From contig CAWIIB010000009.1 of assembly GCA_963836075.1 (NCBI GenBank), positions 576,001 through 640,000 on the forward strand: a DNA stretch of 64,000 nt, in the 5' to 3' direction. Of the stretch, positions 3,157 through 48,396 are shown piece by piece. The DNA is from an uncultured Acidobacteriota bacterium. GTDB taxonomy: Bacteria; Acidobacteriota; JAQAZP01. Every line of letters begins with the position of its first letter. The first letter of the stretch is position 1. The notes under the pieces were generated by a model, which did not search any database, was not told the DNA's origin, and was given only the letters and a program-made list of their open reading frames with translations. Made by a program: the position numbers and the translations under genes.

Positions 3157-3185
3157 TTGACAATACGTACATGATAACGTACGTT
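3157..3185 (+). promoter_or_regulatory. Sigma70 promoter/operator of yefM-yoeB cassette
   Basis: TTGACA-17-TACGTT with two acgtac motifs overlapping the spacer and -10. Confidence 0.65.
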
Positions 3186-43934: not shown

Positions 43935-45233
43935 TTAATGCCTGTGGACCCCAAGTTGCACCACGTCCCGGCCGAAGATCAGGTCGAGGGTCCAGTCGAG
44001 GGCCACCCGCACCTTGCGCGCCAGACCCGGCATCTTGGAGAGGTAGACTGAGCGCCAGAGAAACCAGGCCAGGAACCCGGAGAGCTTGATCCCGAAAATC
44101 TTCGCCACCCCGGTGCGGCAGCCCAGGGCGGCCAGGGTGCCGATGGTCTTGTAGACGAAGGGCCGGGGTTTCTCGCCGGCGGCCAGCCGCAGCAGCGTCC
44201 GGGCCAGGTGCACCCCCTGGCGCACGGCGTTCTGTGCCGTGGGGGCATAGGCTTTTCCCTCAGGGTCGGGGTTGATCGCCGCGTCGCCGATGGCCCAGAC
44301 ATTGTCGAAACCGCGGACCCGCAGGTCCGGCTCGCAGAGGATGTAGCCCAGCTTGTCGAAGGGCAGCGGCAGCCGGGCCAGCAGCGGGTTGGGCGCGATC
44401 CCGGCGCACCAGATCACCGTCTCGCTCTCCAGCCGCCGGCCGTCACCCAGCATCACGTGATCAGCGGCGATGGAGTGGACCGAGCTTTCGAGCAGCAGAT
44501 CGATGCCCCGGGCCGTGAGCTTCTCCGCCGCGTAGGCGGAAAGGTCTTCGTCCAGGGCGGGGAGGATCCGCTCGCTGATTTCGACCATGCTCACCCTGCA
44601 GAGGCCCGGGTTGAGGCTGGGGTAGTGCTCGCACGCCTCGGCAAGGAACTCGCTAAACTCGCCAGCCACCTCCACACCGGTGAAGCTGCCGCCCACCACC
44701 ACGAAGTGCAGCAGCCGGCGGCGCTGCTCCTCCGAGCCGGCGGCGTCGGCCCGCTCCAGAACCTGGATCGCGTGGTCCCTGAGGGCCACCGCCTCCACCA
44801 GGCTCTTCAGCTCGAACCCGTGTTCCCGCAGCCCCTCGATGGGCGGCAGCCGGGTGACGCTGCCCAGCGAGATCACCAGCTGATCGTAGTGCAGCTGTTC
44901 GACCACGTCCGACCCCGACATGCGGTAGGAGACGGTTTGCGCGCCGGTGTCCACCCCCTCGATGTCGGCCATGCGGAAGGTGCAGCGGCCGGTGAAGTCG
45001 CGGATGGAGACCACGGTGTGCCTCGGGTGCAGGCTGCCGGTGCCCGCCTCCACAAGCAGGGGGTAGAAGATGAAGTAGTTGTGGCGGTCGATGATGGTGA
45101 CGTCCACCTCGCCCCGCCGCACGGCCCTGTCCAGCGCCTGGGCGCAGTAGGCCCCGCCGAACCCGCCGCCCAGGATCACCAGGTGCGGCCGCGGACGGCC
45201 GTTGGCCCTAACCGTGACATCTCCCCTCTTCAT
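43935..45233 (-). CDS. ndh: Type II NADH dehydrogenase (FAD-dependent oxidoreductase)
   Basis: [23 protein letters not shown] and AQ.A.RQG motifs. Confidence 0.88.
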
Positions 45234-45402
45234 TCCACATCTCCTGGAGCATCATGGCCCCGGATTAATTATGGAACCTAGAGCGAATTAGTCAATCATT
45301 AAATTGAGGGAGGAGAGCCTGTCATTGCGAGCGAAGCGAAGCAATCTCCATTTCAGCCCTAATGGCTCTTTTGAGATTGCTTCGTCGCCTTCGGCTCTAA
45401 CC

Positions 45403-45807
45403 TTGAGAAGACCGTAGGCATGGAGCTTCCGGATCCACTGGCAGTCAAGCACGTCCGTCTTCTTCCGCCCCGGCACGTTCCTGGACTGGCGGGCATCCAC
45501 CAGTACCACCTCCAGCCCATGCTGCTCCAGCACATTGGCCACCGGGACCCAGTAGACCCCGGTACCTCTCCATCGCTACTGTCGTGACGCCGCAACTGGT
45601 CAGCCAACGGCCCATCTCATGCAGGTCAGGTGTCTTGCAGTCAAACGAACGAACCGGCTGCTCATCCCGCTCCGGTGATACCGCCACCAGATGCTTGCGG
45701 GATCCCACGTCGATACCAGCCGCCGAAGGGTTGACCTGCTCCATCGTCTCGTCCAGCTTCTTCATCTTTGACCGTGACTTCTCTCGCTTCTTCTTGCTAT
45801 CCTTCAT
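45403..45807 (-). pseudogene. IS110 transposase N-terminal DEDD domain only
   Basis: AAGIDVGS..VAME(STGVYW)..KKTDVLDCQWI..HAYGLL; no C-terminal domain. Confidence 0.88.
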
Positions 45808-45810
45808 CTG

Positions 45811-46034
45811 ACAGTTCCTTGTGTGGTGGTTAACTTCTGGCCCTGGCCCGGAGGAGATCGTCGAGTAATCTCTTAAACGGGATAGCTTCGTTCGGGCGCC
45901 TAACCAGAATCGGAGCTTCACCAATCAGACCTTCTCCTACCCCGGAACCAGGCTCGCAAGCGGGCAACAGTGCTCCAATGTGCCGCCGGTCATTGCTGCC
46001 AGGACCGTGAAAGCCTAACTGTACAAGGAACTGT
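45811..46034 (-). ncRNA. Candidate IS110 bridge RNA
   Basis: 12-bp closing IR, nested 9-bp stem with G-U on minus, and short matches to both element junctions. Confidence 0.5.
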
Positions 46035-46092
46035 TTCTTTTACATATCTCCCGCTGCCCCAGCGGGTCGGGGGCTCGCAATGACATTTCCGG

Positions 46093-48396
46093 CTATTTCC
46101 GTGCCGCGTGCGGGTGACCTTCGGCGTCGATGGCGGCCAGGGCGGCGATGCTCACCACCTCCTCCACCTCGCAGCCCTTCTGCAGCACGTGGATCGGCAG
46201 CTTCATCCCGGCGAGGATCGGGCCGACGGTGTGGGCCCCGCCCAGCTTGCGCAGCAGCTTGTAGGCGATGTTGCCGCTGGCCAGGTCGGGGAAGAGCAGC
46301 ACGGTGGCGTCCCCCTTGATCCGCGAGAAGGGGAAGAACTCGGTGGCGATATCACTGTCGATGGCGGTGTCCACCTGCATCTCGCCGTCGGCCAGCAGGT
46401 CGGGACAGCGCTCGGCCAGGATCTCCCGGGCCCGGCGCACCTTGGACGAGGCCGGGTGCGGAGCAGAACCGAAGTTGGAGAAGGAGAGCAGCGCCACCCG
46501 CGGTTCGATGTCGAGGCTGCGGGCCACTTCCGCCGCGATCTCGGCCAGGCCGGCCAGCTGTTCGGCGTCGGGCTCGATGTTCACCGTGGTGTCGGAAAAG
46601 ATGAGCAGGCGGTTCTCGAAGATCATCACGTAACTGCCGCTGACCAGCTGGACGCCCATCGGCTCCTTGACCACCTGCAGGGCGGGCCGGATGGTTTCCG
46701 GGTAGTGACCCGTCATCCCGCCCACCATGGCGTCTGCGTCTCCTGCCATCACCATCATCGGGGCGAAGTAGCGGCGGTTGGCCATCAGCTTGGCCGCCTC
46801 GCTGCGGATCAGCCCCTTGCGCTGGCGGTTCTGGAAAAACGACTCGATGTACTCCTCGCGCTTGGGAAAGATCAGCGGGTCGATGATCTCCACGTCACCG
46901 AGCAGTTCCAGGCCCAGCTCCTCGACCCGGGCGCGGATTGCCGCTTCACTGCCCAGCAGCACCGGCTTCGCGATCCCTTCCTCGACGATCTGGTGCGCGG
47001 CGCGGAGGATCTTCGGGTCGTCCCCCTCGGAGAAGACGATGCGTTTCTTGGTCTTCATCGAACGGGCCTTGCCGATCAGCTGGCGCATGAAACGGTGGCC
47101 GGGACCGAGGCGGCTCTCCAGGGCGTTGCGGTAAGCGTCCCAGTCCTCGATCGGCTTCTGGGCCACCCCAGTCTCGCAGGCGGCGCGGGCCACGGCCACC
47201 GTCTCCCAGATCAGCACCCGGGGGTCGAAGGGTTTGGGGATCAGGTATTCCCGGCCGTAGTGCAGCTGATCCACACCGTAGGCCCGGCAGACTTCGTCCG
47301 GCACGTCCTCCTTGGCCAGCTTGGCCAGGGCCCGGGCCGCAGCCACCTTCATCTCCTCGTTGATCGCCCGGGAACGGACGTCCAGGGCGCCGCGGAAGAT
47401 GAAGGGGAAGCCGAGCACATTGTTCACCTGGTTGGGGAAGTCGCTGCGGCCGGTGGCCATGATTACGTCGGGCCGGGCAGCCACGGCTTCGGGGTAGGTG
47501 ATCTCCGGGTCGGGGTTGGCCATGGCAAAGACGATGGGATCGGCGGCCATGGACTGGACCATCTCCCGGCTCACCACGTCGGCCACCGAGACGCCGCAGA
47601 AGACGTCGGACCCCTCCATGGCCTCGGCCAGGGTTCGGCGCCCGGTCTCCGCGGCGAAGCGGGCCTTGTACTTGTTGTATTTCGGGTGGTCGGGATCGAG
47701 GTCCTCGCGGCTGCCGTGGATCACACCCTTGGTGTCGCACATCATGACGTTTTCCAGACGGACGCCGAGGGAGACGTAAAAGTTGGCGCAGGCGATGCCG
47801 GCGGCGCCGGCGCCGTTGCAGACCACCCGCAGGTCCTCCAGCTTCTTCTCCACCAGCTCGGCGGCGTTGACCAGCGCCGCCCCGGAGATGATCGCCGTGC
47901 CGTGCTGGTCGTCGTGGAACACGGGGATGTTCATCGTCCGCTTCAGCGTCTCTTCGATCAGGAAGCATTCGGGGGCCTTGATGTCCTCGAGGTTGATCCC
48001 GCCGAAGGTCGGCTCCAGCAGCTGGCAGGTGCGGATAATCTCCTGCGGATCGAGGGTATCCAGTTCGATGTCGAAGACATCGATATCGGCGAAGCGTTTG
48101 AACAGCACGCCCTTGCCCTCCATCACCGGCTTGCCGGCCAGGGCGCCGATGTTGCCCAGGCCCAGCACCGCCGTGCCGTTGGAGAGCACGGCCACCAGGT
48201 TGCCCTTGGCGGTGTAGAGGTAGGCGTCCTCCGGGTTCTTCTCGATCTCCAGACAGGGTACGGCCACGCCGGGGCTGTAGGCCAGGGAGAGATCGCGCTG
48301 GGTCAGACAGGGCTTGGTGGGCGTGACCTGGATCTTCCCGTGCCTGCCGCGGGAGTGGTATTCGAGAGCCTGCTGCTTCTTGTTCATCTCCTCCAC
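46093..48396 (-). CDS. maeB: NADP-dependent malic enzyme (PTA-domain fusion)
   Basis: [33 protein letters not shown] and DGEMQ motifs. Confidence 0.96.

Follow-up and report, generated by a model that had tools for sequence, protein, structure and literature searches.

An IS110-family insert with a putative bridge RNA gene in a REP-like palindrome of an uncultured Acidobacteriota bacterium

According to excerpts of the two IS621 papers (PMC11208160, PMC11208158), IS621 has a CT core and a bridge RNA of 177 nt in which a target loop is followed by a donor loop; the same excerpts place the left target guide (A50-U58) 5' of the stem-loop and the right target guide (G77-G80) 3' of it. For ISPpu9 and ISPpu10 of Pseudomonas putida, IS110-family elements residing in REP sequences, an excerpt of another report describes separate chromosomal modules that form circles and move (PMC12288879). 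When the literature was searched for non-autonomous, truncated, or orphan bridge-RNA elements of the IS110 family, ISPpu9 was the sole relevant case among the matches listed.

Here we describe an insert found in the window, that is, the whole stretch of 64,000 nt that was analysed (contig CAWIIB010000009.1 of assembly GCA_963836075.1, positions 576,001 to 640,000), to whose positions the coordinates refer unless another sequence is named. Very probably, recombination guided by a bridge RNA once integrated an IS110-family element here, and the insert is an immobile remnant of it in which the bridge RNA gene has stayed intact.

The insertion site and the truncated copy

The insert lies between two genes, and the malic-enzyme gene, the insert, and the NDH-2 gene all have the same (minus) orientation. 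The features of the locus are as follows.

46093-48396, minus strand: malic enzyme/PTA fusion gene, upstream neighbour of the insert; intact frame, 767 aa
46076-46085, minus strand: left target (LT), palindrome half tgtcattgcg, from sequence comparison
46074-46075, minus strand: core dinucleotide AG (CT on the plus strand), single; the full copy and the multi-copy relatives have AG on both sides
45398-46073, minus strand: insert, a 676-bp 3'-truncated IS110-family element, from the joint 45397/46074 in metagenome run X1 and the alignment to the full-length copy L002
45401-45807, minus strand: remnant of the transposase gene, with an ATG at 45807, an extra G at 45566, and homology that stops at 45405/45401
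45398-45400, minus strand: tta, the 3 nt before the right target; filler, or a leftover of the right-end tip cTTAag
45320-45397, minus strand: remainder of the REP-like palindrome, i.e., the right target gagccgaaggcgacgaagcaatctc (45397-45373), a loop, and the distal arm (45348-45320)
43935-45233, minus strand: NDH-2 gene, downstream neighbour of the insert; intact frame, 432 aa

On the plus strand, the split palindrome reads tgtcattgcgag...gcaatctc (45320-45348), gagattgc...ggctc (45373-45397), and ctcgcaatgaca (46074-46085). A literature search with its sequence returned unrelated primer matches only. The sole sigma-70-like site in 45250-46250 (minus strand, window positions 45268-45295, TTGACT-16-CATAAT) falls between the palindrome and the NDH-2 gene, ahead of the start of the latter at 45233.

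Most of the stretch was found in many metagenome runs (20 rows from 7 studies), and the contigs of four of them were compared with positions 45300-46150. Such contigs carry no information on RNA ends or levels; the small-share runs X19 and X20 were left out, as were stretches that no contig covered. One contig of run X1 (422 nt) turned out to consist of 45319-45397 joined straight to 46074-46150, with 676 bases skipped, 0 other letters over the 79 and 77 flanking bases, and 0 bases common to both sides. Because this contig joins 45397 to 46074 unambiguously, the insert comprises exactly 45398-46073. The empty site, tgtcattgcgAG|gagccgaagg, is a normal member of the palindrome family, and the insertion point within it is gcgAG|gagcc. 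The insertion in the window is real, and its left junction is precise. The preliminary description of this locus, which had proposed a search for empty REP sites, was thus right about a palindrome split by some 680 bp, the empty form of the very same site giving 676 bp. It was mistaken in reading CT on both sides of the insert: the true core is found at 46074-46075 only, the CT at 45397-45398 is composed of one flank base and one insert base, and there is no duplication.

The same description had called for full-length copies, and a DNA search of the own genome revealed one (L002 1513-3170), on the same contig about 675 kb from the window, to which we refer as the master copy. It is the only other copy, and in a palindrome of the same family it occupies the position that the window copy occupies in its own. 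In total, the own genome has two bridge RNA copies and, besides the window fragment, one IS110-family transposase gene. No near copies were found in 60 related genomes, weak matches in G016 and G048 having been set aside. The 10-mer tgtcattgcg of the left target is also present 5' of the full-length copy and in L025-L027; among the four listed relatives with the left target guide TTGCGAG, the three others have the full 10-mer and L024 retains cattgcg only.

The boundaries of the element were read from relatives. In four genomes with several related copies, divergence starts just outside the flank-AG on the left and just after AG on the right. A 61%-identical element of an uncultured bacterium is inserted in the same place of the same palindrome (...tgtcattgcgAG | left end ... 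gtttcttagg AG | gagcgaagcggcgaagcaatctc). Since the left-end sequence of this relative differs from that of the window element, the left boundary is set at 46073 and the core is AG on the transposase-sense strand.

Over 46085..45406, the window copy shows two differences from the master: position 46071, the third base of the left end, is C in the window copy and G in the master, and the ESTG motif is interrupted by a frameshift that results from an additional G (45566). About 140 codons can be aligned before the homology stops at 45405/45401; next come tta (45400-45398) and the palindrome (gagccgaagg...). The master copy ends with ...gtttcttaag, AG, and gagccc...; measured against this end, the window copy therefore lacks about 985 bp. 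Gone are about two-thirds of the transposase gene (some 320 codons), the right end, the second AG, and the sub-terminal repeat GTTTCTT. The core AG is present once, and no bases are shared at the joint.

The protein of the master copy (462 aa) shows the DEDD (RuvC-like) domain PF01548 that is characteristic of the IS110 group (8.6e-22, 78 bits), as well as the C-terminal Tnp domain PF02371 (3.6e-11), and it scores 259.5 bits against the whole-protein model NF033542, "IS110 family RNA-guided transposase," for which the cut-off is 140. To the solved IS621 and ISCro4 proteins it is distant, with E about 1e-4 (9.4e-05 for IS621). The end architecture is also that of the IS110 group, with a long non-coding left end (266 nt), a very short right end (the stop codon of the master lies 3 nt before the element end), and no terminal inverted repeats; the core is found at both junctions of the master (AG/AG) and of multi-copy relatives, but not of the window copy. 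The window fragment matches PF01548 at positions 55-105 only, with 28.8 bits, below the 29-bit cut-off, and it has no Tnp domain. The earlier statement that the insert keeps the DEDD half of the transposase is therefore too generous, the more so as the frame is broken at 45566.

These features of the window copy could in principle be errors of the assembly, with the real locus being either empty or full-length. In runs X1, X2, and X3, the extra G is absent from every contig spanning 45405-46085; past 45405, the loose end of the X1 contig is full-length transposase sequence, and the contigs of X2 and X3 run on for several hundred bases. Among the contigs listed for the four runs none bridges the truncated junction at 45398-45405, so that the assembly is its sole support, and no similar truncated copy was found among those contigs, in the own genome, or in the 60 relatives. 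The three 1-nt differences fall in short runs (GG, CC, and AA), and the empty allele in X1 would also agree with such an artefact. Nevertheless, we regard it as highly improbable: the reading frames are intact in the master copy as well as in the genes on either side of the insert (767 and 432 aa), and a mis-join would be expected at a shared sequence, whereas here it would fall at a non-homologous point and involve filler bases.

The putative bridge RNA and its guides

The upstream non-coding region of the insert was interpreted with the help of its relatives. Left ends were compared by eye for 6 elements and then by pattern for 81 loci, and a covariance model (R1) was built from 39 sequences to remove the pattern bias. 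On the window, R1 gave a single match (45997-45862, 84.5 bits, E 4.7e-18); among the relatives, 75 of 80 loci were matched, on the sense strand and upstream of the gene, and in the own genome exactly two matches were obtained. No Rfam family was detected over 44800-46600 at E <= 1. The predicted features of the region are as follows.

46033-46073, minus strand: left-end tip, composed of the right-donor bases (46073-46067), a hairpin CCCGCT/AGCGGG (46066-46050), and AAGAAAC (46039-46033)
45839-46006, minus strand: bridge RNA, 168 nt, from the P1 5' arm (46006-45998) to the P1 3' arm (45847-45839)
45946-45991, minus strand: target-binding loop, with P2 GACC (45991-45988) / GGTT (45949-45946) and the P3 hairpin (45977-45961)
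45986-45978 and 45959-45951, minus strand: target loop guides, i.e., a candidate right target guide in 45986-45978 and the left target guide at 45959-45953, followed by CC (45952-45951)
45848-45945, minus strand: donor-binding loop, with a closing helix (45945-45928 / 45862-45848), the P3' hairpin (45923-45878), and the left donor guide (45876-45870)
45811-45822, minus strand: 3' arm of a 12-bp inverted repeat over the RBS, with its 5' arm at 46034-46023; paired in the MFE fold

Two rules describe the left guides. The left target guide (LTG) comprises the 7 nt after a conserved CCCG-N and equals the five left-flank bases plus AG, and the left donor guide (LDG) comprises the 7 nt after TCCCG-N, located 60-83 nt later, and equals the last five right-end bases plus AG. 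In the pattern set (39 non-redundant elements, 33 of them with enough flank), the exact LTG 7-mer was found 100-160 nt upstream in 25/33, compared with a mean of 1.35 and a maximum of 6 when partners were permuted (500 permutations), and the LDG was found at the right end in 30/33 (permuted mean 5.0, maximum 12). The set obtained with the covariance model (69 non-redundant RNAs) gave exact matches for 45 of 58 LTGs (permuted mean 3.2, maximum 9) and 51 of 59 LDGs (6.5 and 14, respectively), and AG ended both guides in 69/69 cases. The covariation of non-coding ends with targets, which had been named as a check, is thus borne out for the LTG by a count of 45/58 against a permuted mean of 3.2. 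In addition, 17 of 23 elements (6.9 expected) begin their left end with the same 2 nt that come directly after the LTG.

In the window copy, the LTG is TTGCGAG (45959-45953) and the LDG is TTAAGAG (45876-45870). The latter equals the right-end tip plus core of the master (cTTAAG + AG, L002 approximately 3164-3170) and has no counterpart in the window copy. The 9-mer ttgcgagcc, previously noticed at 45959-45951 and again at the junction (46080-46072), is indeed present at both places and is explained by the rules, since the LTG with its 2-nt extension matches flank, core, and the start of the left end. The proposal that a bridge RNA is programmed to this palindrome family stands as far as the left target guide is concerned. 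It fails for the donor guide, which had been sought in ggttag: the match between 45905-45900 and 45402-45397 exists, but the true donor guide is TTAAGAG. The rejected 6-mer lies inside the variable donor-loop hairpin, and its chance expectation is about 0.06 in 266 nt.

The predicted structure was supported by the alignment to the covariance model, in which P2 was paired in 99.1% and P3 in 99.7% of cells, and helix 3, in the donor loop, in 91.7%, with 8 of its 11 pairs changed on both sides. For the three helices of the model together, 95.6% of cells were paired, compared with 83.1% in shuffled and at most 47.5% in slid alignments, and double changes amounted to 186 cells versus 54 in shuffled ones. 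The outer helix P1 keeps a constant distance from the guides and has unrelated sequences in different elements; the mean length of its longest helix was 9.0 in the 39 elements and 6.78 with mismatched partners (maximum 7.36 of 200). For the closing helix of the donor loop, the respective values were 6.79 and 6.11 (maximum 6.64). In the window copy, P1 (46006-45998 / 45847-45839) has nine pairs, one of them G-U. It coincides with the nested stem previously seen at 45839-47 / 45998-46006, which thereby turns out to be a conserved closing helix, and as it spans 46006-45839, the RNA should be about 168 nt long. Folds of the single sequence were uninformative (z of -2.45 and -0.97). Because guides covary with flanks throughout the family and the structure itself shows covariation, sequence comparison supports the reading of the upstream non-coding region as a bridge RNA gene whose left target guide is programmed to the palindrome family. 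Over the span of this putative RNA, the window copy is identical to the master copy.

A candidate right target guide was found in the 9-nt segment between GACCG and the first hairpin, which is complementary to the core-G plus the first four right-target bases more often than with permuted partners, in one register only; 75 of 145 pairs were formed, compared with 57.7 +/- 4.7 after permutation, and 0 of 1000 permutations reached the observed count. The window element fits this family register poorly (1/4 plus core); its CGGC (45985-45982) would find a partner in a GCCG that lies two bases deeper in the target. For the right donor guide, no register on the 5' strand of the donor loop exceeded permutation. 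In the 14 nt after the LDG, the best value for the right donor was 7/1000 and that for the right target 18/1000 at one shift, both uncorrected for about 50 tests, and no right donor signal survives that number of tests. Scanning the RNA for 5-mer complements of the right target and the right donor returned only the left end's own hairpin.

Nearer to the tip, the left-end motif AAGAAAC covaries with the GTTTCTT of the relatives' right ends (column 69 versus LD -9, complementary in 20 of 23, with 11.3 expected). Among the relatives (e.g., L043, L062, and L077), the pairs of sub-terminal repeats include AAGAAAC/GTTTCTT, AGTAAC/GTTAC, and AATAAC/GTTAT, the left one located about 36-43 nt inside and the right one at the tip, where it overlaps the donor half-site.

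The 12-bp inverted repeat over the RBS was correctly described earlier: its arms, ACAGTTCCTTGT (46034-46023) and ACAAGGAACTGT (45822-45811), match without exception, and it covers AAGGA and stops 3 nt short of the ATG at 45807. It would hide the RBS in transcripts containing left-end positions 40-51. Conservation of such an RBS-covering long-range helix in the family was not demonstrated (8.30 versus 7.73, maximum 8.38). Neither the left end nor the left junction gave a sigma-70-like site in the promoter scan. Since the malic-enzyme gene has the same orientation, read-through from it would give a sense RNA of the left end, and the remnant would then act at most as a supplier of bridge RNA in trans. 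One contig of the RNA library X18 covers 45852-46086. As it continues into a different flank, it represents another insertion site, and with DNA carry-over being possible in this library, it gives no more than a faint indication of transcription of left ends.

The target guide TTGCGAG is common to nine non-redundant elements (loci L002, L024-L028, L048, L054, L057, and L060), and the MAG labels of these elements are Pirellulales, Desulfobacterales, Anaerolineae, Entotheonella, Gammaproteobacteria, and others. The left junction reads ...caTTGCGAG in four of four cases in L024-L027, with gtcattgcgag in three of the four; in the other TTGCGAG elements, an exact match to the 7-mer is found at the left end. 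This distribution suggests that the palindrome family, or at least a shared target, crosses phyla. Another locus, L083, has two bridge RNA matches (546-662 and 2251-2367), and its right target is the start of a left end; judged from this arrangement, it is a head-to-tail tandem that contains a natural right-end/AG/left-end junction.

Origin of the window copy and the solo left-end tips

In the reading that we prefer, integration would have occurred at gcgAG|gagcc between the malic-enzyme and NDH-2 genes, guided by the bridge RNA, and the present form would most likely have arisen when a copy that had been full length at this site suffered an illegitimate deletion. To derive the right junction aagg-tta-gagcc from the master, one needs a large deletion, a loss of 1 nt, and, in addition, a filler of 3 nt or a loss of 4 nt; because filler or several small losses are needed, the junction looks like the product of illegitimate recombination. 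A simple microhomology junction was considered for the right end, and none fits the comparison of the window copy with the master. Since the donor half-site TTAAG with its AG is absent, the copy would be neither excised nor mobilised by the mechanism of the family.

The preliminary description had instead seen a mini IS110 that could be mobilised in trans. A non-autonomous element with both recombination ends, moved by the master by means of its own bridge RNA, would account for a bridge RNA identical to that of the master and for the precise left junction. Its right junction, ggTTAGAG, does resemble TTAAGAG (3/5 plus core in the best register); TTAGAG differs from the donor guide by a single missing base, which leaves some room for a deletion derivative that once had two ends. 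The ISPpu9 modules, too, are reported, in the excerpt of that work, to move separately by using a transposase (PMC12288879). Still, a mini-IS or MITE has both ends, a duplicated core, and several copies, and the window copy has none of these. The right-end tip and the GTTTCTT repeat are missing, the core is not duplicated, and the donor guide is left without a partner; the copy is single in its genome, with none in the 60 relatives or in the contigs listed for the four runs. Moreover, LD-LDG mismatches are reported in excerpts on IS621 to be poorly tolerated. We therefore consider a mobilisable element very improbable.

A copy that was never full length at the window site deserves more weight, even if it is the less probable course compared with a later deletion. 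In such a case, after a one-ended or aborted integration, e.g., of a single-stranded intermediate, the left junction would be precise and the right one illegitimate. The precise left junction agrees with this course, as does a right junction that lacks the core, has three bases without explanation, and is preceded, 5 nt inside the copy, by the loss of 1 nt; a preprint on IS621, in the part available, describes mainly single-strand excision and half-match recombination. On the other hand, its product would be indistinguishable from that of a later deletion, and the tta equals the true right-end positions -5 to -3, in agreement with a deletion by which some bases of the end were spared.

Besides these copies, at least 15 solo units were noticed in G000 outside the window (e.g., C9:60328-60410, C9:3369650-3369725, C5:27143-27225, and C10:20600-20675). 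Each is composed of tgtcattgcgAG followed by about 55 nt that by eye resemble the first 55 nt of the IS left end (a hairpin plus AAGAAACA-N-GTTCTT), usually with another tgtcattgcgAG-gagcc palindrome next to it; at one locus two units are in tandem. They have no bridge RNA, R1 matching just two places in the genome, and at the position equivalent to 46071 they mostly have C, as does the window copy. A further site outside the window, G000:C9:60490-60590, is donor-junction-like: gcttgtTTCTTAAG and AG are followed by a 35-bp palindromic hairpin resembling the left end and then by the reverse complement of tgtcattgcgAG.

With its occupied site, empty site, master copy, and readable bridge RNA, the locus offers a natural reference set in a clade far from IS621, one in which the sequence itself reveals the left guides of 7 nt. 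If transcribed by read-through from the malic-enzyme gene, the fragment would be an additional source of bridge RNA for the one master copy, and the left junction of the window copy, together with the solo left-end tips, would constitute half-sites at which the recombinase could cause rearrangements.

Comparison with known systems

As far as the excerpts of the IS621 papers go, the system described here resembles IS621 in several respects: the recombinase belongs to the DEDD plus Tnp family, a long left end encodes an RNA of about 170 nt with the target loop before the donor loop, the left guides equal flank plus core and right-end tip plus core around a core of 2 nt, REP-type palindromes serve as insertion sites, and a 2-nt extension of the guide matches the other DNA partner, as handshake guides do. 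There are also differences. The proteins are distant (E 9.4e-05), with 462 aa here and 328 aa in IS621; no right donor guide was found here, and there is a 7-nt sub-terminal repeat (AAGAAAC/GTTTCTT). The long guides are of 7 nt and lie 3' of each loop hairpin, in contrast to the position 5' of the stem-loop given in the IS621 excerpts, and the core is AG on the transposase-sense strand but CT in IS621, if the strand is taken as in the text of those papers.

From the last two differences and with the same proviso about the strand given in the excerpts, we infer that a reading of the opposite strand would align with IS621, having a CT core, a short guide on the 5' side, and on the 3' side a long one whose 2-nt extension matches the donor, and the body of the element would then be inverted relative to the core. 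A much broader proposal, which we put forward only tentatively and think more apt to be wrong than right, is that of a widespread, deep-branching IS110 clade in which the bridge RNA is reversed compared with IS621, so that 3' long guides with a 2-nt handshake-like extension and a sense AG core would amount to an IS621-like CT machinery in which the body of the element is inverted relative to the core; the solo units, at least 15 in number and each some 55 nt long, would be footprints of half-site, left-guide-only recombination, and the left-end tips a self-spreading appendage of the palindrome.

With the IS1111 group, the element shares sub-terminal inverted repeats of at least 7 nt, and it differs from that group, as described in the excerpt of PMC11208160, in the location of the RNA, which lies upstream of the gene here, in a long left end, and downstream of the gene there, in a long right end. 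The likeness to ISPpu9 and ISPpu10 lies in an IS110-family element residing in REP and in parts of the element that are also found separately in the chromosome. The modules there are reported, in the excerpt of that work, to be circular and mobile, whereas the window fragment lacks one end and is present in a single copy. The feature in the window is an ordinary decayed IS, a known kind of element.
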